Below are positions 8,689-57,584 of a stretch of DNA of 64,000 nucleotides, piece by piece; positions within the stretch are counted from its first letter, which is position 1; each line of letters starts with the position of its first letter. The stretch is from assembly GCA_040394885.1 (NCBI GenBank), contig JBEBRK010000011.1, forward strand, positions 9,549 to 73,548, read 5' to 3'. The stretch comes from Gemmatimonas phototrophica (GTDB lineage: Bacteria > Gemmatimonadota > Gemmatimonadetes > Gemmatimonadales > Gemmatimonadaceae). The position numbers and the translations under genes were made by a program. The notes beneath the pieces are model-generated. The model was not told the DNA's origin. It made no database searches and saw nothing but the letters and a program-made list of their open reading frames with translations.

Positions 8689-11600
8689 AAAGGCGAGTCA
8701 GCTTAAACGAAGCCTCCTTACCTGTGAGCTGTTTCAGCATATCGGCGTACACAGAAACCTGGTTCAGATATTTCCCTTCCCGCTGAGTCCAGACTTCTTT
8801 GGATACGGAATCAGTCTTCCAGTCTATCACTTTCCAACTCTCGCCATCAAGATACGCGACATCGAGAACGCCTTCCAGAAGCTCGCCGATCTGATCATCT
8901 GAATTGTAAGAAGATACCTTCAGCTCGAACCGCCGCTCAGGCGCAGTGGAGATCGCCCGCCACTCTTTCGTCTTCTGAAGCTGTTCTAAAATTTCCAGAA
9001 TCTCTGTGGCTTCAACTATACTGAGCCCTTCGTCTGCACACACCGCCCGTACAAACCGCTCAAGATTCAACCCCGATCTTCCCCGCCCCATTCCTTCAAT
9101 ACTGCGATGCACTGCGCTTCCCCATCGAGCACCACGTGCTGCGACCGCAGAACTATCATTTTCAATATCACGCGGAAGTGCAGAGGCTAAAGTATAAAGC
9201 GCATGTTCAACATCTCTGCGTTCGCGGGCAGACTGTGTTACAGTTCCAGTTACATATGATTTCTGTCCGGCAGCTTCAACTCTTTTCTTTGCAACGCTCA
9301 CCTGTTGTTGAATATCATATAAAGTTGAACTGGGTTTAATACGTCCAACTTCAGTAACAGGAGAATGGACCAGGCGTTCGCAATTATCTTCCAGCAATGG
9401 GTGCAGATGCGACCACAGACTGCGGATTAATGTCTTTTCACCCTTTGAACTCACCTTAGTGCCAACTGTTATTATCAGCTCTTCTTCGGCGCGTGTAACC
9501 GCAACATATAGAAGACGTTGGGCTTCAGCAGCAGAAAATAACGATTCTGCACGAACCACATCACTCCACAAATCAGAATGAGCTACTCCGTGACCGCTAT
9601 TATCTGACACGCTCAGGTAGCCAATCGCTTCCCCATTTTCATCGCGCGCTACAACGATTTTCGGTTCATAATTTTTTCTTTCGCCGGATCCAGCAAGAAA
9701 AACTATCTTGGCTTCCAAACCCTTTGATTTATGAAGGTTCATAATACGAACCACGTCTCCGTGTCCTGCACGCAGTGGAGTGTCGTCAGCTTCGTCCTGC
9801 TCGATCATCATGTTGATTCTTTCGACAGCTTCGCTGATGCTGCATGCATTTGGCATTGCCCGCAACGAATCTACTATATGCATCAGGACACCAGCTCGCC
9901 CATCACCCAACTCCTGAGTAGCTGCATAGTAGAGTACGCCTGTATCGACATAAATAAGCTCTAACAGTTCATCGCCAGACATACGCTGACCGCTCTGCCA
10001 CCATGAGTTAAGCAGTTCAAGACCCTGCCCAACTGCACAATCGGTGGATTTAGGTGGACGTATAGCTGTGAAACTATGTCCCGATTTCTTTGCATAAAAG
10101 AGATCTTCCGGCGTACAACCGATGAATGTCCCTTCCAGTGCAGCGGCAATAGCAATAGGATTCTCGGGATCGGCCAGTGCCCGTAAAACCACACAAAGCT
10201 CGACCAGCTCCGACTCCTGGAGCAATGGTGCGCCGGTTGTAGCAACCGGAACATTTCTGAGCGCCAATTCGCGGGCAAACTCTGCTATCTCTTTGCGTTT
10301 TTCGGTTAGAATCAGAAAGTCGCCAGGCTTATTTTGTCCCGATACCACCCTTGAATAGATGTACGATGCAATAAGCGTTGCCTCTGAAGGCGGACTATTA
10401 CCATTAGGCGAATTATTACCAGTCCGGGCAGTTGAATATTCAAATGCATTGAGAGAGATACAACTATTTGAACTCTCTTTAACTGTATCCATTTTAGAGA
10501 AGGGGGCCTGATGCGCAGTTGCAGACTCAGGAAACACCTTTTCGAAATACTTGTTAACCAGCCCACCTATAACAGCTGTAGATCTGAAATTCTGCGTGAG
10601 AGCAACAACTAATCCCAACTCAGATATACGTTTCTTTGCAAAGTCGTATATCTGAATATCAGCACGCCTGAATCTGTAAATGCTCTGCTTGGGATCACCA
10701 ACAAAAAACAGAGAGCCATCCCGAGGGGTGACCTTTTGCCAGACATTCCCTTCTGTGGACGGAGATGCAAGCAAAAAGCATATCTCGGCCTGCATAGGAT
10801 CGGTGTCCTGAAATTCATCTACCAGTAAAAAGCGGAACTTAATTCCAAGACTATCACGGACTTTGTAATTATCCCGAAGCAAGGTTCCAGTATACCGAAG
10901 CAGATCATTGAAACTCAATTTCCCTGTTGCACGCCTTAGCTCTTCAAACTGTTTCGCAGCCTGCTCCAGGAATTTCATTGCAAACTGATAACGATACGAA
11001 CGCCAGTCGTATAAAAGTTTACCGGCTGCGTTAGCAATAAAATCGTTAAAGTCCTCACTGGCTGCCTTTGCCAGGAGTTTTACTTCCTTACTATCTCCCC
11101 ATCGCTTCTGAACAACTGATGCTTCTGTCTTACATGCATTATCCAGATAGTTACAGAAGCTAACCGCATCGTTCCATTCAGGGCGTTTCCTTTTATTAAG
11201 GAGCCCTCTGACTTTGACCATAAGGTTATCCCAGCCGTCGTCTGGAATAACCCTGGGAACGAGTGGCTCGATGTCGCTCAACAAACTATTTAAATCTGTT
11301 CTAACCTTGGACACATCCGGCATATCCAGGGCTTTATAGACAAACGAAACATCGCTGTTGTTTACAAAGCTTTTGAAAGTTTCTAAAAGACCCCGAGGAG
11401 ATATTCCGACCTCAAGCATGGCTTCGTAATCAGGGTCGCTGTTACGAAGTGATCGTTCCAGATGATTATTCCAAAAGTCAGCGCACAGATCATCCCAATC
11501 TTCATCTGTAACTTCACTGAAGTTCGGGTCGAGGCCGACTTCAAGTGGATACTCCCGAAGTAGCCGACCACAAAATGAATGGATTGTGCCAATAAATATC

Positions 11601-34557: not shown

Positions 34558-36303
34558 ATGAAAGCAAATTCTTTTAAAGTTTACGGACAGTTATTAAAAA
34601 ACGCTCGAGGCACTGTCATTTTTATGACTGTGTCAGGCGTCATAGCGGGGCTTTGCAGTGCCGGTATTCTGGCACTTGTAAACCAGGCTTTAAATAAAGA
34701 CCATCACATAACCACACTGCTAATCAGCGGGTTCATTGCGTTGGCAGTAGCTAAAATCGTTTCAAACGCTGCGTCCCAGCTGTTGCTGGTAAAATTCTCG
34801 CAGACTACGATTCTCAACCTTTCGATCAGCCTTTGTGGTCGCGTACTCAATGCACCACTACGTGTAATTGAAAGGCATGGTGGCGCCAACATCATGACCA
34901 CCCTTACAGACGACGTCGGAGCAGTGACATGGGCTGTACAGGTCATGCCGCAGCTGGCGATGAACGCTTCTATAGTAATAGGTTGCAGCCTTTACATAGC
35001 CTGGCTGTCAAAGACCATGTTCCTCGGCGCTATGATCGTCGGCTTGCTGGGCGTTGGAGTCTACAAGCTCCTGCATACGAGAGCGGTAGCGCGTATTCAG
35101 GCAGCACGTGATGCAAGAGAGCGCCTGTTCGAGCACTTCAGAACACTGACCGGCGGCATCAAGGAGTTGATGCTCCACAAGGATCGCAGAGATTCGTTCC
35201 TCAATCAGGAGATCAACCGCGCAGCTCAGGAATACCGCTCCAACAATATTGTAGCTACAAAAAACTACGCAATTGCCGAGGGATGGGTACAAACGCTTTA
35301 TCATGCCCTTATGGCATTAGTGCTCTTCGTATCTCCCATATTATTAGAGGCGAGCCCGGAAGCATTAACAGGTTATATGTTTGCGATGTTGTACATGATG
35401 ACTCCGCTCTGGAACATCATAGGGTCCTTACCGCCGATTGCACAGGGAAAGGTCGCGCTCGAGAGGATTGACAAGCTAAACAAATCCATCGAACAGCACT
35501 CAGTAGCTCACTATAACGAGCTCACCGATGGAAAGTCCTCTTCCACAGAAGTCTCCGAAAGACAACTACCAAAGGCCTCCCACATTGAGATGAAAGACAT
35601 TGCGTTTACGTACGCATCTAAATCTCAGATAAAAGATGGTGATCATCCATTTGCACTTGGCCCTCTTGATTTCAGCCTGGCTCCTGGCGAGCTGGTGTTC
35701 GTTATCGGCGGAAATGGAAGTGGAAAGAGTACCTTCGTTAAAGTTTTAACCGGCCTGTACGCACCATCGAGCGGAAGTCTCAAGATCGACGGCAAAGAAG
35801 TCACAGAGTTTTCACGGGAATTGTACAGAGAGAACTTTTCGGTTGTTTTCGCTGAAGTATTTGTATTCGACAAGCTCCTCGGATTGAATTCACCCGACCT
35901 TGAAACGAACGCATTAAAGTATCTGAAGCTGCTTCAGATCGATCACAAGGTATCGATCAGATCAGGCGCGCACGGTCTTGAGTTTACAACAACTCAGCTT
36001 TCAACAGGACAGCGTAAAAGATTGGCACTGGTTACAGCGTATTTAGAAGACAGGCCAATTTATGTTTTCGATGAATGGGCAGCGGATCAGGATCCAGAGT
36101 ACAAGAAGATATTTTATTCGAAGCTCCTTCCGGACCTTCGTAACAGAGGAAAGGCGGTTGTAGTTATAACTCACGACGATCGCTACTTCTCAATGGGTGA
36201 TAGGGTCGTGAAATTGGATGATGGTAAAGTTGTAGATTGGGTTCCAACACCTGACTCTGAATTAGAAGTCCCTATCAAGCTTCCCAATCCACATCACGTC
36301 TAA
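34558..36303 (+). CDS. Cyclic-peptide-type export ABC transporter (SyrD/PvdE/YojI family, fused TMD-NBD)
   Basis: Six predicted TM helices are followed by Walker A GGNGSGKST, signature LSTGQRKRLAL and the family-typical Walker B region YVFDEWAADQDP. Confidence 0.85.
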   Translation: MKANSFKVYGQLLKNARGTVIFMTVSGVIAGLCSAGILALVNQALNKDHHITTLLISGFIALAVAKIVSNAASQLLLVKFSQTTILNLSISLCGRVLNAPLRVIERHGGANIMTTLTDDVGAVTWAVQVMPQLAMNASIVIGCSLYIAWLSKTMFLGAMIVGLLGVGVYKLLHTRAVARIQAARDARERLFEHFRTLTGGIKELMLHKDRRDSFLNQEINRAAQEYRSNNIVATKNYAIAEGWVQTLYHALMALVLFVSPILLEASPEALTGYMFAMLYMMTPLWNIIGSLPPIAQGKVALERIDKLNKSIEQHSVAHYNELTDGKSSSTEVSERQLPKASHIEMKDIAFTYASKSQIKDGDHPFALGPLDFSLAPGELVFVIGGNGSGKSTFVKVLTGLYAPSSGSLKIDGKEVTEFSRELYRENFSVVFAEVFVFDKLLGLNSPDLETNALKYLKLLQIDHKVSIRSGAHGLEFTTTQLSTGQRKRLALVTAYLEDRPIYVFDEWAADQDPEYKKIFYSKLLPDLRNRGKAVVVITHDDRYFSMGDRVVKLDDGKVVDWVPTPDSELEVPIKLPNPHHV

Positions 36304-36321: not shown

Positions 36322-39180
36322 ATGCCAAATTCGATAGCTGAATTATTGGCGAAGCTCAGAAGTCTAGAGATTGAAATTAAGCTAGACGGAGAAAAGTTCA
36401 GTGTGAGTGCACCAAAAGGAGCACTCACACCAGATATTCAGAATGAGATTCGTGTCAATAAAAGCGACATAATCGCCGCCCTTGGCTCGCCAAAGCCTGG
36501 GACGACCGCAGGAGATTTATCGTTTTGGCAAAAGCTGCTAGCTAACTCTGCTGCTGAAATTGAAATAGCATTCGATAAGCCAAGGGGACTCACTACACCA
36601 CAATTCGATAAAGTTGTTGACGGATTATCAGCACAGGAACACGAAGCGCTAAAAGCAGCAGAACAGAAATTATCGCTCAAGGCAGATGTGATTTTGTTCG
36701 CTGCGTTTCAGATAACTGTAGCCCGACTCGCGTCCCACTACGATGTTATCAGTGCATTTTCTTCGGATGCGGAAGCCGCTGACAGTATCCCTCTACCTGT
36801 AAGAACGGATATATCCGAAAATCCGCACCTGCGTTCGGCGCTCAAAATAATAGCAGAAGCTGTTTCGACATCTCTTTCGCACACAACACCTGAACTATTG
36901 CAGTTTCTGGAAGCAGTACAGGCGTCGAGAGAGGTTTCGAACCTGCCGGCATTTCAAACTGCCTTTAGGTATGCCAAAGACGCCAAAGCTGCGGCACAAC
37001 AATCTGAGGGAAAACAGGAAAACGGGTTAACCGCAGATACAGCAACGGTTACCCAAAACCCTGATATCCGAAAGAACAGATTAACTGCAGATGCAGATCT
37101 TTCACTTTCAGTGTTGGATTGCGACGGAAAAGTTGAACTCTCCCTGACCTACAATTCAGCGATTCAGGAAGCTGCGACAGCCAGGCTTTTCCTGACGCGA
37201 TTCAAGATCGTCTTAAACGCAATCATGGAAAACAAGGATATTGGAATCCTGAACTTTCCGATTGTTACAGATGAAGAACGTGCACGAATTTTAGGAGATT
37301 GGAATCCATCTGATTCTGGGAATTGGGATTTCAACAGATGCGTTGGAGATCTGATATCTGAACAGGCACAAAAAACACCGAACAAGATTGCTATCACTGA
37401 TGGCGTCCGTTTGCTTACTTACAGCGAACTGGAAGCTGAAGCGAATCGCCTCGCAAACTACCTTATTGAAGTTGGAGTCCACCCAAAGAGCAAGGTTGGA
37501 ATCTGCGTCGAACGGTCACCAAACATCGTCATCTCTGCCCTCGCAATCTGGAAGGCGGGAGCTGCATATGTACCACTCGATTCAACCTATCCTAAAGATC
37601 GCCTGGCATACATGGCGGACGATTCCGCCATTGAAGCTCTCATAACAGAAGAGAGCCTGGCTTCACTAGTGGAAGTTGATGCGTCTAAAGCTACGATTGT
37701 ATATCTGGATAAAGATTCCAACAAGATTGCTTCGCAGCCCAGTACAGTACCTGATATCCAGCGTTCGCCAGACGATCTTGCTTATATCATCTACACATCC
37801 GGATCGACCGGACGCCCTAAAGGAGTGATGATACGGCATCTGGGAGTCGCCAACTTCATATTAGCTCTACGCGACAGGACCAACTTTAAAGAGGCTGATA
37901 ACTTCTTTTCGGTCAGTGCAGTATCGTTCGACGTATCCATCGCCGAATATTATATGCCGCTTATTACCGGAGGAACGGTTACGGTCGCTCCCTTCTCTCT
38001 TGCGGCTGACGGAACCAGGCTTAAGGGATTAATGTCCGAATCCAAACCGACCTTTATGCAGGCAACCCCTGCACTTTGGCGGTTGATACTGGACGCTGGC
38101 TGGAAGGATGGTAGAGGAATGACCATCTATTCCGGTGGCGAGGCACTCACAAAGGAGCTGGCGTACTCTCTCTTAAGCACCGGCGCATCCCTCTGGAACC
38201 TCTATGGTCCGACCGAAGTTTCTATTTATTCTCATTTCTATAATGTCCCTGAGAACGCTGAAAGAATATACGTCGGGCGACCGTTTCCCAATTATTGCGT
38301 TTATGTCCTAAACGAGGCCGGTGAACTTGCCCCTCCTAATGTATTAGGGGAGATTTTCTTAGGCGGTGTAGGTGTTGCGGTTGGATATTTAAACAGAGAT
38401 GATCTGACGAAAGAACGTTTTGTTAGAGATCCATTCTCGAAAGCCCCGAATGCCAGAATGTACCAGACTGGGGATCAGGGGCGGTTTAGCAGCAGCGGCG
38501 AACTTGAATGTACCGGCCGGTTGGATAATCAGGTGAAAGTCAGAGGTTTCCGTATTGAACTAGGCGAAATCGAGTCACAGCTTGCCACAGACCCGTCTAT
38601 TAAGAAAGCTGTTGTCGTGGTTAGAGAAGATTCCCCTGGTGACAAACGTATAGTTGCATATGTGCAGCCGACGACCGGTCGCTCAGTTGACCCGGAATCG
38701 CTTAAGCTGATGCTCGGCCAACAGCTCCCGCCTTATATGGTTCCAGCGTTATTCATGACTATGGACTCCTTTCCGCTGACACCAAGCGGGAAGGTAGACA
38801 GTCGGAATCTTCCGGTACCAAAGCTTCAGCGAAGCGCTGCTGCTCAGTTTATAGCCCCGACTTTAGGGTTGGAGTCAGAGGTCGCATCAATCTGGAAAGA
38901 GGTTTTAAAGTTAGAAAAGGTTGGTTCCAACGAAAATTTCTTCGATCTTGGGGGAGACTCACTGCTAGCGGCTCGTTTACAGAATGAGCTGCAGCAGAAG
39001 TATACAATTAACTTCCCACTGGTCGAACTTTTTCGAAGCCCAACGATTTCTGCCATAACCAAGTTTATAGATAGTACAATTGGTGGAAGCATGAATACAT
39101 CCGAGAGTAATAAACGCTCATTCACATCACAGGCCCGTGAACGTGCAATGTTGCAAAATCGTACGAGACCAAAGCATTAG
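36322..39180 (+). CDS. NRPS loading module: TubC_N-type docking domain, relic C-terminal half of a condensation domain, A domain and PCP
   Basis: Docking domain: LLAKLRSLEIEIKLDGEKFSVSAPKGALTPDIQNEI. A-domain cores: LTYSELEAEANRLANYL, YIIYTSGSTGRPKGV, YGPTE, YQTGDQGRF, GRLDNQVKVRGFRIELGEIE and PSGKVD. PCP: FFDLGGDSLLAARL. No HHxxxDG motif is present. Confidence 0.9.
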   Translation: MPNSIAELLAKLRSLEIEIKLDGEKFSVSAPKGALTPDIQNEIRVNKSDIIAALGSPKPGTTAGDLSFWQKLLANSAAEIEIAFDKPRGLTTPQFDKVVDGLSAQEHEALKAAEQKLSLKADVILFAAFQITVARLASHYDVISAFSSDAEAADSIPLPVRTDISENPHLRSALKIIAEAVSTSLSHTTPELLQFLEAVQASREVSNLPAFQTAFRYAKDAKAAAQQSEGKQENGLTADTATVTQNPDIRKNRLTADADLSLSVLDCDGKVELSLTYNSAIQEAATARLFLTRFKIVLNAIMENKDIGILNFPIVTDEERARILGDWNPSDSGNWDFNRCVGDLISEQAQKTPNKIAITDGVRLLTYSELEAEANRLANYLIEVGVHPKSKVGICVERSPNIVISALAIWKAGAAYVPLDSTYPKDRLAYMADDSAIEALITEESLASLVEVDASKATIVYLDKDSNKIASQPSTVPDIQRSPDDLAYIIYTSGSTGRPKGVMIRHLGVANFILALRDRTNFKEADNFFSVSAVSFDVSIAEYYMPLITGGTVTVAPFSLAADGTRLKGLMSESKPTFMQATPALWRLILDAGWKDGRGMTIYSGGEALTKELAYSLLSTGASLWNLYGPTEVSIYSHFYNVPENAERIYVGRPFPNYCVYVLNEAGELAPPNVLGEIFLGGVGVAVGYLNRDDLTKERFVRDPFSKAPNARMYQTGDQGRFSSSGELECTGRLDNQVKVRGFRIELGEIESQLATDPSIKKAVVVVREDSPGDKRIVAYVQPTTGRSVDPESLKLMLGQQLPPYMVPALFMTMDSFPLTPSGKVDSRNLPVPKLQRSAAAQFIAPTLGLESEVASIWKEVLKLEKVGSNENFFDLGGDSLLAARLQNELQQKYTINFPLVELFRSPTISAITKFIDSTIGGSMNTSESNKRSFTSQARERAMLQNRTRPKH

Positions 39181-42100: not shown

Positions 42101-42364
42101 CCATCTTCTGAAACTGAGAAGTTCCTGGCAGAGACCTGGGAATCTCTTCTGGGGCTGGCATCAATTGGATCGGAAGACAACTTCTTTGAACTTGGCGGCC
42201 ACTCACTTCTGGCAACAAGTCTCATGACTCGCATACATCAGCGTTTTGATATGAGGCTTCCACTCAGAACTATTTTTGACGCTCCAACAATCAAGGAGCT
42301 AAGCCTCGTTATAGACAAACAATCTGCCCCACCAGATGAAGGCAGAGAGGAGATAGAGTTTTGA
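39191..42364 (+). CDS. Type I PKS module KS-AT-carrier protein with no reductive domains
   Basis: KS motifs: DPQQRVFLE, TACSTSLVA, EAHGTGTQLGDP and KSNIGHLDVAAG. AT motifs: GHSIGEYVAA and HAFHS (malonyl-type). Carrier: FFELGGHSLLATS. The ATG at 39191 is preferred because it lies 11 nt after the NRPS-1 stop. Confidence 0.9.
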   Translation: MNASESSYPNSAVAVVGMSGRFPDANSVSQFWQNLLDGAEALTDLSDDELLSAGADAEKIKDPNYVRKASLLKGSEMFDANFFGINAREAELIDPQQRVFLECCWEAIEDAGYICDKYPGSISVYAGAGYNTYLLRHIAGSSVLNDPITAYSAQLGNDKDYLATRVSYKLDLKGAAATVQTACSTSLVAVQRAWQSLVDYECDMALAGGVSIAHPQTAGYLFMDGMILSPDGHCRPFDSNARGTRFSPGAGVVVLKRLSDAIRDRDQIRAVILSASINNDGAGKVGFSAPSVDGQAECIALAQATAGIDSSNIESIGFVEAHGTGTQLGDPIEVTALTQVFAESTDRKQFCALGSGKSNIGHLDVAAGVAGFIKTVLCLENRKIPATINFETPNPQIDFENSPFFVNTKTIDWKSNSHPRRAAVSSFGIGGTNAHAILEEAPAREYSFQFDDDDSNAVTHTLVLSARSKAALSQTASNLADHLDRESHLSLSDVAYTLQTGRKRFEHRQTITANSIGDAISALRGERKTGVTYLDAGNLNDNPPVTFLFSGQGSQYVGMCRDLYNENATFRRYFDECIAALPASFGQDLKSTILGFESGSKVSTDDSSGGNSSGGSSGNSNGSSSSGNNPDTAAANTSNKLTQTSYTQPALFAIEYALARTLIHAGISPTAMMGHSIGEYVAACLAGVMSVSDGMKLVSERGRLMQSMEPGKMVAVPLSEAELAPLVNEPLTIAAINTPELCVVAGPGNAIDSFIESLAKREIEVRPLHTSHAFHSSMMDAAIAPFIEAFKSVNLNTPTIPYISNRTGTWITAEQATSPEYWADHLRHTVRFSEGVTELSRIDGMVFVEVGPGKTLATLTRQSLQGAKNQTINTTPHAMDDTSSSAVFAESIGRLWAAGLEINWDAFYSDDLPYKTSLPTYPFERKKFLLPLRSLGGAGVDSLQNTDSTQSAENHQNSYERPDINQEFIAPSSETEKFLAETWESLLGLASIGSEDNFFELGGHSLLATSLMTRIHQRFDMRLPLRTIFDAPTIKELSLVIDKQSAPPDEGREEIEF
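41008..41077 (+). repeat. Low-complexity Ser/Gly/Asn-coding tract in the KS-AT linker
   Basis: It encodes SSGGNSSGGSSGNSNGSSSSGNN from reiterated AGC/GGC/AAC codons. Confidence 0.6.
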
Positions 42365-45300
42365 CCACTGCTCAATTTATCGCCAGACTTAATGGGTTAG
42401 ACATTCGTCTTACCCGTAAGGGCGACAAATTAAGCGTGAATGCACCAGATGGTGCAATGACGCCTGAACTTCGTGCTGAAATAGCAGACCGCCGAGATCA
42501 ACTCCTCGCCTATCTGGGCACCGGGACAGATTTTGTACTCACTCAATCGCCTGATCCTACCGAAGGTCCACTGTCTTTTGCTCAGCAGCGGCTCTGGTTT
42601 TTATACAGATTAAATCCGCGGGATGTATCGTATAATCTCGCTGTAAGTGCTGTAGTGCCAGAAAGCCTCTCTAATGAAGAGCTTGAATCCCGTATCTCTG
42701 CACTGGTTCGTGACAACCACTCACTACGTACGATATTTCCCGAACGCGATGGTATTCCATTTCAGCGTGTTATAGAAGCTGAACCACATCTTTATATACG
42801 GGATGTGGATGTAGCCAGTGACGATATAGCCCGTCAGCGTGAAATTCAGTACGAGATTATGCGTCAGCCGTTCAAACTTGAGGCAGAAGTTTCAGTACGG
42901 TTCGAGCTCTTAAGACTGCGCGACGGCACCAGAATACTGCTCATTCCGATACATCATATAATATCGGATGCATGGTCGCTTGGAATTCTGATAGACCGGC
43001 TTATAGACGGGAGTTCGTCATCATCATCGTCGAAGTTTCAGTATCTTGACTTTGCAAACTCCGAACAGGCCTGGTTCGCATCACACGATCAGCAGGATCA
43101 CGCCAATTACTGGAATGAGATAATCAAGGGTCCAATACCGGCTCTTGAGCTCCCAACCAAGCCAGTATCATCTTCATTAACAGATGTAGTTGGCGATTCA
43201 TACCAATTCAAATTATCAGCAGAAGTCTCTGACAGGCTGAGGTCTTTGGCTCGCCAGAACGGCGTTACGCTATACAGCGTACTGCTCGGCATATTCAAGG
43301 TTGTCCTGCACAGATATTCAGGCCAACAGGACATACTGGTAGGTTCACCAGTTACGAATCGCTATAGTGTTGAGCTAGAGGATATGATCGGTATCTTCAT
43401 CAACACTATAATTGTGCGTACAAAGTTTGACGGGGAAACACCGTTCGCAAGTGTAGCAAAACAGATTCACAACTCGATGCTGGAATCTTTTGAACATAAA
43501 GATTATCCATTCGAAAAAGTTGTGGAACTTGCCAGACACAACAAATTCCCCTCCAATGCCTCGTTGTTCAGAACCGGCTTTATTCTAAACAACACACCCA
43601 GCGGTGGAAAACATCAGGATTTTACAGGCGGCTCTATCTTCGACCTTAGCCTGTACATGGAAGATGCCAAGGATGGGCTACTTGGAACATTAGAGTATAA
43701 TGTGAATCTGTTTGAGCTGGGTACGATAGAAAGATTTGCTGGCCACTACTCCACGCTGGCACGCGCTATCGCCAACCAGTTTGACGCGAAGATTAATTCT
43801 CTTGAGATTCTTTCTGATGCAGAGAGCGCTCAACTCGACAGCTGGAACGAGACAGCTAGAGAATATCCGAAAGATGTTACAACAGCACAGCTGATTGAAC
43901 GTCAGGCCATAGAACGCGCAAACAGCACAGCTGTTGTATCGAAATCGAAGCAGCTAACATATAACGAGCTGAACAGACGAGCCAATCAACTTGCCAGGCA
44001 TCTTCTGGAAAATGGTGTCTCAAGAGGCTCACTGGTCGGTGTGTGTCTCGACAGAGATGCAGCTATGCTCGTCTCAGTGCTGGCAGTATGGAAAGCTGGC
44101 GCAGCGTATGTTCCGTTAGATCCAACTTATCCTCAGGACAGGTTGGTTTATATGGCAGAAGACGCAAGGCTCGCAGCCATTATTTCCGAATCTAAGTTTG
44201 AATCTCTATCCAATACGATCGCTAGCGCTCCACAGGCTACAGTTGTTCTTGTAGATAAAGAATCAGAAGTAATAAAATCACGCAGCGACGAAAACCAGTC
44301 GCTCGAGCTATCTGCAACAGATGTGGCTTACGTCATCTACACATCTGGTTCTACAGGAAAGCCAAAGGGTGTTCTTATTGAGCACCGTTCTCTGGTAAAC
44401 CTGCTGTATTCCATAAAAGAGCAGCCAGGATTTGTTGAGTCGGATATTATCTTCTCAGTTACTACACTTTCCTTTGATATTGCCGGCCTGGAGCTGTACC
44501 TGCCGCTTATCTCGGGCGCGAAGGTGGTTATCTCCTCAAGACAGACACTTGCAGATCCGAGGGCACTCGCCCGAGAGATAAAGGCCTCCGGTACTACATT
44601 TATACAGGCGACCCCAGCGATGTGGCGCTTCCTCCTGGACTCGGGATGGAAGGATGGTGAAGGCTTAAGAATTCTTTGTGGAGGAGAAGCCCTGCCAAGA
44701 TCTTTGGCAAACGCAATTCTCGCTACAGGAGCTGAGCTGTGGAACGTATACGGGCCAACTGAAACTACAATATGGTCGACCTCTGTACTTGTAGAGAAAT
44801 CTGATTCACCTGTTTCGATAGGTCGGCCGCTTGCAAACACCCAGGTATATGTCCTGGATGAAAACAGCAACCGTTTACCAATCGGCATACCTGGTGAACT
44901 GTATATCGCTGGCGATGGCGTAAGCCGTGGATATTTAAACCGTCCGGACCTGACGTCAGAGCGATTTGTTGAAGATGTTTTTGGGTCAAAGAAAGCATCT
45001 ACTATAGACGAGGGTACTGCTATAGACGATGGTGCTGCGCAAACCAGAAAGATGTACAGAACTGGCGATCAGGTAAGGATGAATCCTGACGGGCAACTGG
45101 AATACATCGGCCGTCTCGATAATCAGGTTAAAGTTCGTGGTTATAGAATCGAGTTAGGTGAAATTGAAGCTGTTCTAGTTAAACACCCCGAGATTCAACA
45201 GGCCGTTGTGGTTGCACGTGAGGACACGCCTGGCGACCAGAGATTGGTGGCATATATCATCGGCAGCAATCGTGAGTTACAGAATACTGCGGACCCCGGC

Positions 45301-46548
45301 GAGTTTTCCCATCTCAGGGAAGAGCTTCGCGAATTCCTCAGCAAGTCGCTACCATCATTTATGGTTCCGGCGACATTTGTACCTCTTGGCAGCTTTCCAT
45401 TAACACCAAATGGAAAGGTTGATCGTAAGGCGCTTCCAGCTCCAGCATCCGATAATAAGGTTCATGGCGGCGATGAAGATCAGGCCCCGCAGTCTGAGTT
45501 AGAACGCAAATTGATTCAGATCTGGGAAAAGGTACTTGGAGTCAAGAACATTGGTCGTAACGACAACTTTTTCGATCTTGGAGGCAATTCGCTGCTGGGG
45601 ATACGCTTACTCTCTGGGATAGAGCGGGCATTAAATATCCGCGTGCCGGTAGCAGTGATATTCCAAGGCCAGACAGTTGCTGCCATGGCCATAACATTAG
45701 CAGATAACAACGAGATCGATCTCCATCTCCGTGCTGTTGCAGTTCAACCTCATGGAGATCTTCCGCCTCTCTTCTTTATTCCAGGAGTAAACGGAAATGT
45801 TATCGGCTACGAAGAGTTCGCAACTGGACTTGGACAGGATCGTCCTCTGTATGGCCTCCGGTCTGTCGGACTTGAAGGAGAGAGCGATCCATTAAATGAT
45901 CTTCCATCTATTGCCAGACACTTTGTAGCAGACGTTAAAAAGGTACAGCCACAAGGGCCTTACAACTTTGTTGGATTCTGTATCGGCGGGATAGTTGCTT
46001 TTGAAATGGCCCAGCAATTAAAAGCCGAGGGCGAAGAGGTGGAATTTCTGGGACTGATCGACACCTGGCCGCAGGACATGGTGCCTGTCCCAAAAGCCGC
46101 TTCGGAAACCGGGCAGCAGTTTTTATATCTGGCCGATGCTTTGAAGCGCAACATCAAAGAATTTTCTGCTATACCCAAAGGAAAAAGACTCAACTATATC
46201 AGACAAAAGCTTGGAGCAGCCACCGACATGGCTACAAAGCTTGATGTTTATAGAGGCGATGATGGTGAACGTCTGCAGGATCTTATAATTGCATCCAACC
46301 AGATCGCAGCCTCAACCTATATTGCATCCAAATACGATGGTCCGCTCAGTTTATTTATTACCCTTGGTGATTTAGAGGGACCTGACTCGAGTGACCCGCG
46401 TCTGTACTGGAAAGCCTTCGGAAACGAGGCAATATCATCTGTAATGTGGATCCCAGGCATAGACTCCGGTTCACTACTAAAGAATCCATACTTACCTGGA
46501 TTGTTGAAAGCACTAAAAACCACCCTAGAAGAAAGGAACAGAATTTGA
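42361..46548 (+). CDS. NRPS termination module: TubC_N-type docking domain, C, A, PCP and TE-like domain
   Basis: Docking: FIARLNGLDIRLTRKGDKLSVNAPDGAMTPELRAEI. C-domain motifs: SFAQQRLWF, HHIISDAWS, YLDFA and IGIFINTIIVR. A-domain cores: YVIYTSGSTGKPKGV, YGPTE, YRTGDQ, GRLDNQVKVRGYRIELGEIE and PNGKVD. PCP: FFDLGGNSLLGIRL. The TE region contains GFCIGG. The TTG start overlaps the PKS stop as TTGA. Confidence 0.9.
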   Translation: MTTAQFIARLNGLDIRLTRKGDKLSVNAPDGAMTPELRAEIADRRDQLLAYLGTGTDFVLTQSPDPTEGPLSFAQQRLWFLYRLNPRDVSYNLAVSAVVPESLSNEELESRISALVRDNHSLRTIFPERDGIPFQRVIEAEPHLYIRDVDVASDDIARQREIQYEIMRQPFKLEAEVSVRFELLRLRDGTRILLIPIHHIISDAWSLGILIDRLIDGSSSSSSSKFQYLDFANSEQAWFASHDQQDHANYWNEIIKGPIPALELPTKPVSSSLTDVVGDSYQFKLSAEVSDRLRSLARQNGVTLYSVLLGIFKVVLHRYSGQQDILVGSPVTNRYSVELEDMIGIFINTIIVRTKFDGETPFASVAKQIHNSMLESFEHKDYPFEKVVELARHNKFPSNASLFRTGFILNNTPSGGKHQDFTGGSIFDLSLYMEDAKDGLLGTLEYNVNLFELGTIERFAGHYSTLARAIANQFDAKINSLEILSDAESAQLDSWNETAREYPKDVTTAQLIERQAIERANSTAVVSKSKQLTYNELNRRANQLARHLLENGVSRGSLVGVCLDRDAAMLVSVLAVWKAGAAYVPLDPTYPQDRLVYMAEDARLAAIISESKFESLSNTIASAPQATVVLVDKESEVIKSRSDENQSLELSATDVAYVIYTSGSTGKPKGVLIEHRSLVNLLYSIKEQPGFVESDIIFSVTTLSFDIAGLELYLPLISGAKVVISSRQTLADPRALAREIKASGTTFIQATPAMWRFLLDSGWKDGEGLRILCGGEALPRSLANAILATGAELWNVYGPTETTIWSTSVLVEKSDSPVSIGRPLANTQVYVLDENSNRLPIGIPGELYIAGDGVSRGYLNRPDLTSERFVEDVFGSKKASTIDEGTAIDDGAAQTRKMYRTGDQVRMNPDGQLEYIGRLDNQVKVRGYRIELGEIEAVLVKHPEIQQAVVVAREDTPGDQRLVAYIIGSNRELQNTADPGEFSHLREELREFLSKSLPSFMVPATFVPLGSFPLTPNGKVDRKALPAPASDNKVHGGDEDQAPQSELERKLIQIWEKVLGVKNIGRNDNFFDLGGNSLLGIRLLSGIERALNIRVPVAVIFQGQTVAAMAITLADNNEIDLHLRAVAVQPHGDLPPLFFIPGVNGNVIGYEEFATGLGQDRPLYGLRSVGLEGESDPLNDLPSIARHFVADVKKVQPQGPYNFVGFCIGGIVAFEMAQQLKAEGEEVEFLGLIDTWPQDMVPVPKAASETGQQFLYLADALKRNIKEFSAIPKGKRLNYIRQKLGAATDMATKLDVYRGDDGERLQDLIIASNQIAASTYIASKYDGPLSLFITLGDLEGPDSSDPRLYWKAFGNEAISSVMWIPGIDSGSLLKNPYLPGLLKALKTTLEERNRI

Positions 46549-48668
46549 AAAGGTTATTTCTTTGCACCCTTGCAACATCTATAATTGCCTGCGATTCGGG
46601 GAATAATGATTTGAAATCAAATCCATTGATGGCAGACTGGACCGGCCCTTACGGCGGAGTTCCAGCATTTGACAAGATCGAAGTAAAGCATTTTGAGCCA
46701 GCCATCGAAGCTGCTATGGCAAACCAGTTAGCAGAAGTAGACTCTATTGCGAATCAGACCGAGCCAGCAACGTTCGAAAACACAATTGCTGCAATGGAAC
46801 GCTCTGGTCAGCTATTGGACAGAGTCATGTCTGCATACGGATTATGGTCTGGCAACTTTGCCACCCCTGAATTCCAGGAGGTGCAGACAAGAGTCAGTCC
46901 ACAGCTGGCAGCACATAGCGACAAAATAGTTCAAAATGCCCCTCTTTATGCACGCATAAAGTCGGTATATGAAAACAGGGACTCATTAACACCTGAACAA
47001 CAGCGCCTCACATGGGTCTACTGGAATATGTTCCGTAGAGCCGGGGCGGAATTGGATTCAGCCCAGAAATCGCGTGTGGCCGAAATCAATGGTGAGCTCG
47101 CAAAGTTATTCACAAAGTTCAATCAGAATCTGCTGGCCGATGAAGACACATACATTGTTCTGAACAGCTCCGAGCTGGAAGGTCTTCCAGAATCATTTCT
47201 CTCAGGAGCAGCCAGTTCAGCAAAAGAGCGCAAGGTTGAAGGTCATATCGTTGTAAACACTCGTTCCAGCGTAGATCCCTTCCTTACATACGCTACAAAT
47301 CGTACTGCAAGAGAAAAGGTCTGGAAAGCATTTGTTAACCGTGGGGACAACAACAACGAAACCGATAACAAAGCTATCATAACACAGATTCTGTCACTCA
47401 GAGCAGAGCGCGCTCAGCTTCTTGGCTACCCAACTCATGCACACTGGCGAGTTGAAGATGCGGTTGCGAAGACCCCTGAAAACGCGATGAATCTCATGGA
47501 ACAGGTCTGGCCAGCAGCAGTTGCTCGCGTAAATGAAGAAGTCGCAGAACAGCAGGCAATCGCAGACTCCGAAGGTGCAAATATTACCATCGAGCCATGG
47601 GATTACCGCTTCTACATGGAAAAGGTTCGCAAAGCCAAGTTCGATCTGGATCAGAATGAAATCAAGCCTTATCTGCAGCTCGATAAGTTACGCGATGGAA
47701 TGTTCTGGGTTGCAGGTCAACTGTTCGGTTTCCAGTTCTCACAGGTTAGTGACGTTCCAGTCCCACACCCTGACTTCCAGGTCTGGGAGGTCAAAGGTGA
47801 GGATGGCAAGCATGTAGGGCTCTTCTATTTTGATCCATATGCCCGCCAGGGCAAGCGTTCAGGCGCATGGATGACCGCCTACCGTACGCAGCAGAAGATG
47901 GACAAGGATGTTACAACTATAGTTTCGAACAACTCTAACTTCGTTAAAGCCGAAGCTGGAAAGCCAATCCTGATTTCCTGGGATGATGCCACAACACTAT
48001 TCCATGAATTCGGCCATGCATTACATGGACTTAACTCAAACGTTGTTTATCCATCACTATCCGGAACATCGGTAGCGCGCGATTATGTAGAGTTTCCAAG
48101 CCAGCTGTTAGAGCGCTGGTTAGCAACACCGGAAGTTCTTAATAAGTTTGCAGTCAACGAAGCAGGCGAGCCAATCCCTGCAGAGTTAGTTGAAAAGATC
48201 AAAAAGGCAGCAACCTTCAATCAGGGTTTCTCCACTGTTGAATATCTCTCAAGTGCACTTATCGATATGAAGCTGCACCTTGCCGGCGCAGCAAAAATTT
48301 CTCCAGACACATTTGAGAAGAACACGCTGGATGCTCTTGGAATGCCATCGCAGCTGGTTATGCGCCATCGCACACCACAGTTTGCACATATCTTCTCAAG
48401 CGACAGCTACTCTGCGGGTTACTATAGCTACCTGTGGGCCGATGCAATTACAGCCGATGCAGCTGAAGCGTTTACAACTTCACCTGGGGGATATTACGAC
48501 AGCACCGTTGCCAGAAAGTTGAAGGAGAATATTCTTTCAGTTGGAAACACTGTGGATCCAGCAACAGCGTATCGCAACTTCCGTCAGCGTGATCCTGATA
48601 TTGGCGCACTGATGAGAGCAAGAGGCTTCCCTGCATCAAAAACATATAAGCCTTTGAAAGCCAACTAA
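46545..48668 (+). CDS. dcp: Peptidyl-dipeptidase Dcp (M3 family), predicted lipoprotein
   Basis: HEFGHALHG zinc motif, with EFPSQLLE downstream. The in-frame TTG at 46545 overlaps the NRPS stop as TTGA and gives MKRLFLCTLATSIIAC, a lipobox-like signal. Confidence 0.85.
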   Translation: MKRLFLCTLATSIIACDSGNNDLKSNPLMADWTGPYGGVPAFDKIEVKHFEPAIEAAMANQLAEVDSIANQTEPATFENTIAAMERSGQLLDRVMSAYGLWSGNFATPEFQEVQTRVSPQLAAHSDKIVQNAPLYARIKSVYENRDSLTPEQQRLTWVYWNMFRRAGAELDSAQKSRVAEINGELAKLFTKFNQNLLADEDTYIVLNSSELEGLPESFLSGAASSAKERKVEGHIVVNTRSSVDPFLTYATNRTAREKVWKAFVNRGDNNNETDNKAIITQILSLRAERAQLLGYPTHAHWRVEDAVAKTPENAMNLMEQVWPAAVARVNEEVAEQQAIADSEGANITIEPWDYRFYMEKVRKAKFDLDQNEIKPYLQLDKLRDGMFWVAGQLFGFQFSQVSDVPVPHPDFQVWEVKGEDGKHVGLFYFDPYARQGKRSGAWMTAYRTQQKMDKDVTTIVSNNSNFVKAEAGKPILISWDDATTLFHEFGHALHGLNSNVVYPSLSGTSVARDYVEFPSQLLERWLATPEVLNKFAVNEAGEPIPAELVEKIKKAATFNQGFSTVEYLSSALIDMKLHLAGAAKISPDTFEKNTLDALGMPSQLVMRHRTPQFAHIFSSDSYSAGYYSYLWADAITADAAEAFTTSPGGYYDSTVARKLKENILSVGNTVDPATAYRNFRQRDPDIGALMRARGFPASKTYKPLKAN

Positions 48669-53819: not shown

Positions 53820-55283
53820 CTACTTTAATCCGCTATCAACACCAAGCAATACAATCAACCCATCCGACAAGGTACCACGCCAGCTAAAGAAATCATGCCC
53901 TCCAATAAACTCTTTATGAGTTACCTTGTACCCCTTTGCCTGCAGCACATCTCTCATGTGCCTGTTGGTATCGAGAATACCGCCACCATCATTGGTAAGT
54001 GATATCTCAAAAATTCCCGCATCAAGATAAAACTCGATGGGCTTTTTAGGAGATTTTACATATTCCTTTATAAGCCATTCAGATTCGGAAAACTCATTGT
54101 AGAGTTCTGGAGTGTGGATGTTTCGAGTTGGCGACCACCAAAATGAACCCGACTGACTCAAAACTTTACCAAACACGGCGGGATATTTTAATGCCGCGTA
54201 CGCCCCTGCCAATCCTCCATAACTTGCTCCACCGATCAATGTTTTGTCAGGGTCATCTGTAATTGGATAATTGTCGCGTACCCAGGGCATAAACTCTTTT
54301 GCCAGCCCTTCTGTAAAATCAGGATTACAGGTAAGCTCAGCAGCCCGCGATGCAGCAGAAGGATTTGCGATCAGAACAACTATCATGGGTGGAATGACAC
54401 GCGCTGCAATCATATTATCCATAATTGTTTTAATGCCTGCTCGATATATATAAAAGTCTTCATCAAATAAAACCAACACTGGATATTTTTTAACGTCTAC
54501 AGAATCATCACGATTCATCCTGCTATCCGATTTGGCAGACTCATACCCATGAGGCGCATAAACTGTTATACGTCTAGTGTTCTTCCAGGCTTTGCTCTTA
54601 TAATTATGAGTTGTAAGCTGCCCAACAAAAACCGAGGAATCCGTTCTTACATATGGCTGAGGCGTCGCCCCTGGAAGCTCGACTGTTGAATAGTAACTGC
54701 CTTCTTTTATCCTCGAAGAATCCATCCATCTATTTTTATTGAGAGGATCTCCTTTCGCATCAGTCAGCATCTTACGCCTAACCGCTTTTCCATCAACTAC
54801 TAAAGTATTTGGAACTATCTGATATGAAATTCGAGCGCCAGCTGGAAGTGTGACAGTTTTATACCAGATATCTGTATCTGGAACATGAACAAACTCTGTA
54901 TCCTTGGGCCCTTCATCACGAATTGGCCACCACATATGGGGATTATAGGTAGAATCACCACGCCAGACAAAAGTAACGTTGTAGAACTTCGTTGAATTGT
55001 CACTATCTATCCGTTCAACGATCGGAGAACCATCAGTCTCTAATTCCTTCCAGAAGGATGCAATAATACTATCCCTGCTTGAATAGCTTTTCTCGCTGGA
55101 AATAGATTCTATAACGTGCCTCATCTTCTCGCTCTTTATCTCAGCAAAAGATGATGAAGATGAGGATGATGATAGCGACGACCTGCTCGCCATCTGAGCA
55201 CCAGTCACGGACGGCATAATACCTACAAACAAGACTACGACACCAAGGATTACCTGGTGTCGTATTTTACATACAATTATCAT
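53820..55283 (-). CDS. Esterase family protein (enterochelin esterase / IroE-like), secreted
   Basis: GGASYGG nucleophile elbow and C-terminal GGHDF. A beta-rich N-terminal domain contains VTFVWRGD. The ATG at 55283 gives a signal-like N-terminus. Confidence 0.65.
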   Translation of the reverse strand: MIIVCKIRHQVILGVVVLFVGIMPSVTGAQMASRSSLSSSSSSSSFAEIKSEKMRHVIESISSEKSYSSRDSIIASFWKELETDGSPIVERIDSDNSTKFYNVTFVWRGDSTYNPHMWWPIRDEGPKDTEFVHVPDTDIWYKTVTLPAGARISYQIVPNTLVVDGKAVRRKMLTDAKGDPLNKNRWMDSSRIKEGSYYSTVELPGATPQPYVRTDSSVFVGQLTTHNYKSKAWKNTRRITVYAPHGYESAKSDSRMNRDDSVDVKKYPVLVLFDEDFYIYRAGIKTIMDNMIAARVIPPMIVVLIANPSAASRAAELTCNPDFTEGLAKEFMPWVRDNYPITDDPDKTLIGGASYGGLAGAYAALKYPAVFGKVLSQSGSFWWSPTRNIHTPELYNEFSESEWLIKEYVKSPKKPIEFYLDAGIFEISLTNDGGGILDTNRHMRDVLQAKGYKVTHKEFIGGHDFFSWRGTLSDGLIVLLGVDSGLK

Positions 55284-55331
55284 TATAAAAATGCCTAAAA
55301 ATCTTATGGAAGGCTGAAGATATCCAAACAA

Positions 55332-57584
55332 TTAAAATCTTGTAGTCAATGCGAAGAACACTCTGGAACCTTCTTCATTAAAACCACTGGCAACTTCGCG
55401 CTCAACTTTCTTATTAAGGATATTCAGCATCCCGGCCCGAATATTAATCATGCGATTAACACTGTAGCCCGCCGAAAGATCAAAAGTATTATAGCCGCCC
55501 TGATGAAGAACATTCTGTCCATTTGCCGGAACAGATATATACTGCTTGCCGGTAAATATGGAAGCCAGAGTAAGATTTAACGCTTCCAGTGCCTGCCAGT
55601 CTACCGACACATTTGCATTATGACGGGGACGGTATGTCAGCTGTAATGGTGTTGGCCCACTCAGATTCTTTGCATCCAGATTGGTATAATTTGCAGTAAT
55701 CTGTACATTTTCATGGGCCTCCAATCTTGCAGTAGCCTCAACTCCCTGAGTTCTAGCCTTCGCAACATTTTCATATCTAAAAATCGGACGCCCGTCTGGA
55801 AGCATCCCAACATAATTAGGATATGTTTTGGCAACTACAGTATCTCTGGTTCTGTTATTTATTTCGATCATATCTTTAAGATCATTTCTGAACCAGGTCA
55901 ATCCTACACTCCAGCGTTCCGAATCTATCCGAGCACCAAACTCCTTACTATTTCCAGTTTCCGGCTTAAGGAGCGTACTACCAACTATATAACACCCTGT
56001 CGTGGCACTTCCGCACGACACAGATCCCCAGCTTGGACTGTTTTGAAGTAGGCCAGGCGCCTTAAAGGCCCTCGCTATCCCGCCTTTAACAGTTAACATC
56101 TTAAGAGGATGATACACTACATATGCACGAGGACTATGATTTCCACCGAAGTTTTCGTGCCTATCATAACGATCCCCAATGGTGATCAAAAGATTCTCAA
56201 AAACACGAATTTCGTTTTCAACAAATAATGCATGCTGAGTTACAGAAGTAACCGGATCTGTGGTACCAGTGCTACCAGGCAGGCCCACCAGGTTTGAAGG
56301 ATCTCTGAGTCGATCCATCCTGGTTTCACCACCAACGCTGATTGTTTGTCGTGCAGAGAGCCAGGGAAGTACATATTTCCCGCCAAAATTAGTGTTCACA
56401 GCTTTATTGGGATTTTTCTGGCCGCTAACGTTTCCAACCAGATTTCTGATTCTGTCATATGAGCCTCTAACTTCTGATGTCCCATAGCTCCACGACCCTT
56501 TATGAACTAGCGATACAGCTTCACGCTTCATGGTGAAACCAGCATGATTCCTGTCACTATAATCCAGATCAAGAAGCGCATCGTTTTTTACGTTTGGTGT
56601 CCAGTTGAATGAGGCTGTTACAAATCCATTCTTCTGACCTTCATAACCTGTGAACGTTGATACTTTGTTTACAGCTCCATCACCCATACGACGATTATAG
56701 CTACCTGCAAACTTTGCATTCAGAACATTGTCAATCAATGGTCCACCGACAGCAAAATTTGTATTGTATGAATCACCAGCGTCGCGATTCGACTGCCTCA
56801 TTGTTTCGCCGGTAAAAAAGCCAGACCAGTTATGACGTGGCTTACGCGTGATAATGTTGATTACACCACCAACCGCATCCGAACCATACAACGATGACAT
56901 AGGTCCTCTAACAACTTCAATACGCTCTATATCATCAGTTGGAATCCATCCACTGTCAAAATCATTACCGCGAAACATCGCAGCCTGCGAATTTACACGC
57001 TTTCCGTCGACTAAAATCATAGTGTATCCACTTCCCAAGCCGCGAATCTGGATCTGTCTCTGATTGCTGCTTTTACTAATAGCAACACCTTCAACACTCC
57101 CGATTATGTCGACAATGTCTCGCACAGGCTTCTTTTCCAGATCCTCACGACTTACGACACTAACACTCGCGGGAGCATCACGAAGAGAAGAAATGCTACC
57201 CGAAGCTGTAACTACCTGCTGCTGAAGGGTAATGGCATTGTTGTTCATTAAAATGTCCAGCCTGTTCTGGCCACCATCTACAACATCTATAGTATCTGTG
57301 CCTGGCTTGTATCCCATACGCTGAGCAACTATTACATAACGGCCAGTGCCTAAAGTAAATGAATACTGACCATGCGTATTTGAAAGTGTGGATAGTTCTT
57401 TAAGAGGCCCACGAGCAGTGATTTTAACGCTGGCTAATACGGCGCCATCCTTGTCTCTAACGGTGCCACTCAGTATACAACAGGCCGATTGTGTTTGATT
57501 CTGCCCAGTAGCAGCAGAAGGGGCGAGTAAAAGTGTGCAAAGACCAACCATCAATCCCTTTGTGCACTGTCTTAGGATTTTCAT
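55332..57584 (-). CDS. TonB-dependent outer-membrane receptor with CarboxypepD_reg-like N-terminal domain
   Basis: Signal peptide, CarbopepD_reg-like region SGTVRDKDGAVLASVKI and plug motifs. The beta-barrel ends in a terminal Phe (TTRF). Confidence 0.9.
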   Translation of the reverse strand: MKILRQCTKGLMVGLCTLLLAPSAATGQNQTQSACCILSGTVRDKDGAVLASVKITARGPLKELSTLSNTHGQYSFTLGTGRYVIVAQRMGYKPGTDTIDVVDGGQNRLDILMNNNAITLQQQVVTASGSISSLRDAPASVSVVSREDLEKKPVRDIVDIIGSVEGVAISKSSNQRQIQIRGLGSGYTMILVDGKRVNSQAAMFRGNDFDSGWIPTDDIERIEVVRGPMSSLYGSDAVGGVINIITRKPRHNWSGFFTGETMRQSNRDAGDSYNTNFAVGGPLIDNVLNAKFAGSYNRRMGDGAVNKVSTFTGYEGQKNGFVTASFNWTPNVKNDALLDLDYSDRNHAGFTMKREAVSLVHKGSWSYGTSEVRGSYDRIRNLVGNVSGQKNPNKAVNTNFGGKYVLPWLSARQTISVGGETRMDRLRDPSNLVGLPGSTGTTDPVTSVTQHALFVENEIRVFENLLITIGDRYDRHENFGGNHSPRAYVVYHPLKMLTVKGGIARAFKAPGLLQNSPSWGSVSCGSATTGCYIVGSTLLKPETGNSKEFGARIDSERWSVGLTWFRNDLKDMIEINNRTRDTVVAKTYPNYVGMLPDGRPIFRYENVAKARTQGVEATARLEAHENVQITANYTNLDAKNLSGPTPLQLTYRPRHNANVSVDWQALEALNLTLASIFTGKQYISVPANGQNVLHQGGYNTFDLSAGYSVNRMINIRAGMLNILNKKVEREVASGFNEEGSRVFFALTTRF

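Follow-up and report, generated by a model that had tools for sequence, protein, structure and literature searches.

The terminal thioesterase (TE) domain in one nonribosomal peptide synthetase (NRPS), encoded in a stretch of 64,000 nucleotides from the Gemmatimonas phototrophica contig JBEBRK010000011.1 (hereafter the window, meaning this whole stretch), has a genuine type I TE fold, carries cysteine in the nucleophile elbow and lacks the catalytic histidine. Judged by sequence comparison, this combination is a family trait and not an accident of the window sequence. It characterises a large uncharacterised clade of type I NRPS TEs which, from sequence and modelled structure, we consider on balance probable to be working chain-release domains. 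Function is favoured because the Cys never varies in a clade delimited by overall similarity, because clade-specific polar residues were gained and conserved, because the TE is as conserved as the catalytic condensation (C) and adenylation (A) domains, and because clustering of the neighbours of 28 loci revealed no alternative release enzyme. To our knowledge, the type I TEs characterised to date all combine a Ser or Cys with a His-Asp relay.

Residues of the terminal NRPS are counted from the TTG at 42361; TE numbering starts at nucleotide 45700, and a TE number plus 1113 gives the full-protein number (Table 1). The translation of 45700-46548 corresponds to the sequence described in the first-pass annotation, which had been made from the letters alone, and the elbow, read as TTC TGT ATC GGC GGG (F C I G G), does contain Cys1207. 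Histidines are found only upstream of it, at H9 (DLHLR), H18 (QPHGD) and H74 (ARHF) of the 282-residue domain, and are absent from the 188 residues downstream, again as described. Taken alone this count is weak, the chance of 188 residues without His being about 0.055 at the 1.5% His frequency of the protein, and the significance is therefore carried by the aligned catalytic position in homologues. A frameshift or sequencing artefact hiding a His motif was rejected: past the elbow the other two frames are dense with stop codons, and the homologues run collinearly.

The domain is C-terminal and immediately follows the last carrier domain (peptidyl carrier protein, PCP, residues 1049-1110; TE from about 1136). 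Pfam assigns residues 1136-1252 to PF00975 with 77 bits (gathering score 26.4), the alignment reaching only profile positions 2-118 of 226. The AlphaFold2 (AF2) model, computed from a 75-sequence alignment, has a mean predicted local distance difference test score of 93 and a predicted template modelling score of 0.90. In TE numbering it comprises strands at 12-16, 24-27, 50-53, 88-93, 114-120, 217-221 and 247-251 and a three-helix lid at 136-205 (helices 136-157, 160-180 and 188-205) inserted into an α/β-hydrolase core between strands 6 and 7, with the Cys1207 elbow at the N-terminus of helix 95-109. Cys94, Asp121 and the PGIDSG loop (252-257) stand directly after strands 88-93, 114-120 and 247-251, where nucleophile, position-I acid and His canonically lie. 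In a Foldseek comparison with the PDB, the top 50 matches were all TE domains or TE proteins, with the AB3403 TE (4ZXH) first, followed by the TEs of GbnD6, Skyxy, NocB, Vlm2, fatty acid synthase (FAS) and Pks13. Of the features that mark type I TEs, the window domain lacks the PGxH catalytic His and possesses the others.

Alignments agree with this placement. In every relative the residue aligned with the elbow Cys is the nucleophile, Ser or Cys; the Asp of LIDTW (D121), which had been suggested as the catalytic acid, aligns with the position-I Asp, present as Asp in 97% of Ser/His relatives; and PGIDSG, proposed to stand where GxH was expected, aligns with the PGxH of relatives.

The first homologue search retrieved six relatives at 34-45% identity, all with a GxCxGG elbow and without a loop His (loops PGMGSG, PGEDSG in two of them, TGKDSG, TASDRA and AASRAD), while more distant matches retain PGxH with either a Cys or a Ser elbow. 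A genome scan, with one genome per species, yielded 231 related stretches. The closest came from metagenome-assembled genomes (MAGs) of Gemmatimonadaceae (L002, 51% identity), and the next from Bryobacteraceae, Nitrospirales, Rokubacteria, Terriglobia, Woeseiaceae and a deltaproteobacterium; almost all follow the pattern GxC[IM]GG ... L[IV][DE]TW ... [PA][GA]xDSGxLL, the last element of which is one residue longer than PGxHxxLL, just as the Asp-Ser-Gly loop of the window exceeds that of its close His-containing relatives by one residue. When 1.84 billion representative proteins were searched exhaustively with a profile, 8401 matches fell below 1e-30. All collected domains were aligned to the hidden Markov model of the clade and 267 full-length ones were retained; in this sample, which was seeded with the clade's own profile and whose proportions are not general to TEs, 124 domains have Cys and no His, 62 Cys and His, 73 Ser and His and none Ser without His, the remaining 8 having other elbow residues.

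In a neighbour-joining tree of the 267 domains the window falls in a single clade of 107 leaves, with members from Gemmatimonadota, Acidobacteriota, Nitrospirota, Rokubacteria and others, at least five phyla altogether. Ten members flagged as His-containing by a crude test have the His at non-catalytic loop positions (e.g., PGHDSG, xxxDSGHLF). The clade does not include several small Cys lineages that also lack the His, and on these sequences the topology implies that the His was lost repeatedly and independently. A one-off degenerate domain was discarded as an explanation, the trait being common to all close homologues and to the 107-member clade. The first-pass annotation had called a Cys elbow without the canonical His unusual, which is correct in respect of characterised TEs, but the state is common among uncharacterised NRPSs from metagenomes. 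The window NRPS itself was not found in a collection of 5.8 billion proteins, where the best TE match is 45% identical; one relative, P0005 (locus L001), stems from a nanopore contig with fragmented genes and is to be read with care.

Other unusual active sites appeared in the same searches. Separate Cys-elbow TEs (G[TA]TCMGG) are encoded in MAGs of Verrucomicrobiota (L047, L048, L050, L058, L069, L077 and L081, at about 10001-10700) with Arg or another residue in place of the His (PGxRxG-LF); by sequence, this group looks like an independent His-less solution. Among the matches of the representative search, P0055, P0061, P0072 and P0086 are tandem di-TE proteins in which Asp takes the place of the nucleophile in one TE (GLD[IM]GG or GKDIGG); this TE is without a loop His and adjoins a Cys-elbow TE, which in P0072 is also without a loop His. 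Many further matches have two canonical TEs in tandem.

Within the clade, Cys94 is invariant (107/107), and high counts were also obtained for Pro28 (104/107), Arg234 (99/107), Glu or Asp at 121 (98/107), Asn200 and Asp232 (96/107 each) and Asp182 and Arg185 (85/107 each). Arg234, Asn200, Trp123 and Pro28 are much rarer among the His-containing groups: 83% of the His-less Cys domains have Pro at position 28, where the canonical groups show His at 52-71%, R234 is found in no more than 32% of the Cys/His relatives and 14% of the Ser/His ones, and N200 in 44-49% of canonical groups. The corresponding values for D182 and R185 are 27-31% and 21-31%. The Asp-Ser-Gly triplet was rejected as a universal replacement base, since only 66 of the 107 members have it; Arg1347, Asp1345 and Asn1313 are better conserved than this loop. 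The conserved Asp1345 follows strand 217-221, yet the position-I Asp is present too; in the model Asp1345 and Arg1347 probably lie close to where ObiF and SulM have their ‘position II’ acid.

The genomic record supports constraint on the domain. Locus L002, on contig CAYTFY010000001.1 (740512-761336) of a Gemmatimonadaceae MAG, is syntenic with the window and reads A(Gly)-PCP / KS-AT-KR-ACP / dock-C-A(Gly)-PCP-TE / M3 peptidase, where KS, AT, KR and ACP denote ketosynthase, acyltransferase, ketoreductase and acyl carrier protein. Identity between the two is 42% for C, 58% for A, 77% for PCP, 51% for TE and 72% for the M3 peptidase, which in L002 too follows the NRPS. The TE identity is comparable to those of C and A, so that the TE is not decaying but constrained like its neighbours. 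When neighbouring open reading frames (ORFs) were clustered across the 28 loci, the recurrent partners were limited to exporters, namely ABC exporters at 19 of 28 loci and an ABC-2 permease, and to a phosphopantetheinyl transferase (PPTase). No recurrent trans-acting or separate hydrolase was detected among these neighbours, and a hydrolase partner acting in trans was dropped on this ground.

The Cys-type TEs of SulM, ObiF and AB3403 all retain the His; SulM and ObiF are Cys/His/Asp enzymes with the catalytic acid after strand 7 (‘position II’) and no Asp at position I, and AB3403 has a nucleophilic Cys with Asp at position I (PMC11298585). The terminal TE of AB3403 (ABBFA_003403) from Acinetobacter baumannii (PDB 4ZXH/4ZXI) is both the top structural match of the window domain (Foldseek E 3e-17) and its top profile match (E 5e-25, nearly the whole domain aligned). 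It belongs to a C-A-PCP-TE module like that of the window and shares the Cys elbow (GWCFGG) and position-I Asp (MIDTRAP), but keeps the catalytic His: its PGDHSS aligns on ‘pgedsg’ of the clade profile, with the His on D255 (Asp1368). The identity is only about 23%, and AB3403 is itself functionally uncharacterised.

ObiF1 and SulM, which form the β-lactone of obafluorin and the β-lactam of sulfazecin, respectively, are likewise type I NRPS TEs with a Cys nucleophile, and the conserved Asp1345 of the window lies in the region of their catalytic acid. They differ in keeping the His; SulM has a Gln-Cys-Asn motif where the window has Phe-Cys-Ile, and the last residue of the window product, predicted to be Gly, has no β-hydroxyl or β-amino group for ring closure, unlike the substrates of these two enzymes. 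Neither was among the top 50 Foldseek matches. β-Lactone-like closure by the side chain of the last residue was also rejected for the clade, its terminal A-domain codes being mostly for Gly or Val. With canonical Ser-Asp-His TEs (SrfA-C, EntF, Skyxy, NocB, Vlm2, FAS and Pks13) the window domain has in common its fold and lid, its placement behind the carrier domain, the elbow position and the position-I Asp. These enzymes have a Ser nucleophile instead of Cys, the His is present in 73 of 73 Ser-type relatives sampled, and an H-P/G motif follows strand 3 where the clade has P-G.

Several observations weigh against a working chain-release domain. Conservation of the former His loop is only moderate (about 62%), and E, D, G or S may stand in the place of the position-I acid; such drift is also expected from relaxed selection on a dead catalytic site. 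The association of Cys with His loss comes from the biased sample described above, and all the clade relatives retrieved are metagenomic, with generic names only. Read this way, the domain would be a pseudo-thioesterase without catalytic activity, retained for a structural or docking role, its product leaving spontaneously, via an enzyme elsewhere or by action of the adjacent M3 peptidase. The loss of the canonical His, the replacement of Asp-Ser-Gly by AASRAD, GGG or NAG in other members, the laxity of the position-I acid and the restriction of the Pfam match to the N-terminal half of the domain would all fit, as would an M3 peptidase translationally coupled to the NRPS and conserved beside the orthologue. 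Pseudoenzymes, however, usually lose the nucleophile, whereas here the Cys is retained throughout at least five phyla; the gained polar residues R234, N200 and D232 are conserved at about 90% or above, and TE conservation matches that of C and A. Most loci are without a peptidase or hydrolase neighbour, and the lipoprotein signal of the M3 peptidase suggests that it acts outside the cytoplasm. We therefore regard a dead domain, one of the possibilities raised in the first-pass annotation, as improbable.

That annotation had also allowed for a His supplied from elsewhere, and H74 does sit in the helix ahead of the elbow strand, in an alignment column with His in 46% of His-less Cys domains. This is, however, the best of all TE columns, none of which holds a conserved His: the leading ones contain His at 23-46%, with R, A, Y and N as variants, the ARHF site of close homologues is IAAH, IASR, IAER or IAAS, and a conserved His elsewhere in the domain was accordingly struck from the candidates. 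With no His past the elbow in the window and nothing to suggest one from another domain, a triad completed by H74, by H18 of QPHGD, by the lid or by another domain or protein is very hard to credit.

The analogy with Dieckmann cyclases suits the window pathway but does not extend to the family. TrdC, SlgL and NcmC are stand-alone Cys-Asp-His proteins that carry out non-hydrolytic release from β-ketoacyl-aminoacyl thioesters, giving tetramates or pyridones. If the clade consisted of dedicated cyclases of this kind, making tetramic acids, the carbon acid of the substrate would need no His, and the line of the window, A-PCP / KS-AT-ACP (no KR) / C-A(Gly)-PCP-TE, should indeed yield a β-ketoacyl-Gly thioester, the textbook Dieckmann substrate; Cys-containing Dieckmann cyclases exist. 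The use of Cys and the predicted substrate type are thus alike, but those cyclases are separate proteins with a triad, whereas the window domain is a fused PF00975 TE without the His, and they act on β-keto substrates, to which the clade is not tied. The closest orthologue, L002, contains a KR, additional sequence of a similar kind lies between AT and ACP in L004 and L028, and most clade members terminate pure NRPS lines, none with a β-keto group, on which grounds a family-wide Dieckmann role was rejected. No chain named as a Dieckmann cyclase occurred among 48 PDB sequence matches (E<=1) or the top 50 Foldseek matches, and no direct comparison was made. A clade of dedicated Dieckmann cyclases seems to us distinctly unlikely.

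As a working release domain, the window TE could operate as follows. Cys1207 would take the chain from the phosphopantetheine of the PCP by thiol-thioester exchange, a reaction that needs only a thiolate and no His relay, and the thiolate can be stabilised by the dipole of the elbow helix and a nearby cation. The S-acyl-enzyme, more reactive than an oxoester, would then be resolved with the help of the remodelled polar site, for which Asp1234, Asp1345, Arg1347, Asn1313 and Asp1368/Ser1369 are candidate residues; thioester acyl-enzymes are resolved more easily than oxoesters. Such thiol chemistry is consistent with His loss being seen only in Cys lineages. From the order and codes of the line, the TE should receive a 4-amino-3-oxoacyl-glycyl thioester, built from an unassigned amino acid, one unreduced malonate and Gly. 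Release would proceed either by hydrolysis to a linear acid or by carboxylate-assisted Dieckmann closure to a 3-acyl-tetramic acid; the codes and domain order make the tetramate route conceivable in this pathway, although we think it rather unlikely.

The assembly line of the window is, by its motifs, compact and intact, active-site motifs being present in KS, AT, C and all three carrier domains (Table 1). The terminal NRPS comprises C at 69-492, with the motif HHIISDA, and A at 513-859 followed by its C-terminal subdomain (Pfam); the A-domain code DILQLGVIWK is presumably that of Gly among the Stachelhaus codes. The polyketide synthase (PKS) module has the KS motifs TACS, HGTGT and NIGH and the malonyl-type AT motifs GHSIG and HAFH. 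In the loading NRPS the half C domain covers profile positions 194-455 and lacks HHxxxDG, the A-domain code is not known to match any assigned code, and a TubC_N dock is present despite there being no upstream synthase to dock with. The M3 peptidase gene probably starts at the TTG at 46545, which overlaps the NRPS stop codon and is preceded by AAGGA; its product has an N-terminus resembling a lipoprotein signal (LKRLFLCTLATSIIAC before DSG, lipobox IIAC), and the peptidase may belong to the cluster, serving extracytoplasmic maturation or self-protection.

Table 1 Features of the terminal NRPS, its TE domain and the surrounding gene cluster in the window
Feature	Position	Strand	Evidence
Cyclic-peptide-type ABC exporter	34558..36303	+	TIGR01194, 468 bits vs cutoff 286
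Loading NRPS: TubC_N dock, C-terminal half of C, A (DVAQYGLIYK), PCP	36322..39180	+	Pfam
PKS module KS-AT(malonyl)-ACP, no KR, 1075 aa	39137..42364	+	Pfam, motifs
Terminal NRPS, 1395 aa: TubC_N dock, C, A (predicted Gly), PCP, TE	42361..46548	+	ORF, Pfam
PCP presenting substrate to TE, Ser in GGNS, motif at residue 1073	45505..45690	+	Pfam PP-binding 1049-1110
TE domain, residues 1114-1395 (TE 1-282)	45700..46545	+	PF00975, AF2, Foldseek
Pro1141-Gly1142 (TE P28-G29), after strand 24-27; mostly His in Ser/His relatives	45781..45786	+	
Cys1207 (TE C94), codon TGT, elbow GFCIGG right after strand 88-93	45979..45981	+	Translation, AF2
Asp1234 (TE D121, LIDTW), position-I acid after strand 114-120	46060..46062	+	Alignment
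Asp1295-Val-Tyr-Arg1298 (TE D182, R185), between lid helices 2 and 3; clade-enriched	46243..46254	+	
Asn1313 (TE N200), lid helix 3; clade-enriched	46297..46299	+	
Asp1345-Pro-Arg1347 (TE D232, R234), end of loop after strand 217-221; conserved clade-specific pair	46393..46401	+	
Pro-Gly-Ile-Asp1368-Ser1369-Gly1370, after strand 247-251, replaces PGxH catalytic-His loop	46453..46470	+	
M3 (Dcp-like) peptidase, probably lipoprotein	46545..48668	+	Pfam, NCBIfam

Genes flanking the cluster are housekeeping. About 7 kb downstream, at 53820-57584 on the minus strand, the window encodes an enterochelin-esterase-like protein and a TonB-dependent receptor, which could hint at a siderophore; housekeeping genes for DAHP synthase and PheA intervene before the NRPS. 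The G+C content is 47% in the window and 53% in L002, against 65-70% in the other Gemmatimonadota loci recovered.

Assembly lines in other loci differ in their upstream parts. The PKS of L002 (1977-6638) is a KS-AT-KR-ACP protein of 1553 aa, compared with 1075 aa in the window; the window PKS aligns on both sides of a gap of approximately 500 residues, which looks like a clean loss or gain of the KR region. In L004 and L028 the similar stretch between AT and ACP has about 640 residues. Lines of Nitrospirales loci, with a fatty acyl-AMP ligase (FAAL), read FAAL-ACP-C-A-PCP-C-A(Gly)-PCP-TE, those of Bryobacteraceae C-A(β-Ala-like code)-PCP-C-A(Gly)-PCP-TE, and in other clade loci the last residue is Val or another amino acid.

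The way in which nonribosomal peptides and polyketides are released from the assembly line is decided by TE domains, which are prime engineering targets. TEs with a Cys elbow were already known, and what appears to be new, by comparative and structure-prediction evidence, is a conserved clade without the His; in the full-text literature outside subscription journals we found no description of such a clade and only Cys TEs that retain the His. We tentatively suggest, with rather less confidence than in function itself, that the clade represents a distinct catalytic solution in which, after the change from Ser to Cys, the His-Asp relay became dispensable and an environment of arginine and carboxylates tunes the thiolate and resolves the thioester. 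Sequence conservation nominates as candidates for this environment Arg1347, Asp1345, Asp or Glu1234, Asn1313 and often Asp-Ser-Gly. If this holds true, the relay is not needed once the nucleophile is a thiol, the clade would be a natural counterpart to engineered Ser-to-Cys TEs, and its residues, above all Arg1347 and Asp1345, could be tried as a new active-site design. Annotation pipelines may mislabel such domains as ordinary ‘thioesterase’ or as inactive. The finding also draws attention to a recurrent class of small gene clusters, linked to exporters, in phyla from which hardly any natural products have been characterised. In the small NRPS and NRPS-PKS pathways of Gemmatimonadota, Acidobacteriota, Nitrospirota and Rokubacteria this TE would, on the same tentative suggestion, be the standard release device, and it may favour non-hydrolytic release, which may take the form of tetramate or lactam formation or of transfer to an external nucleophile.

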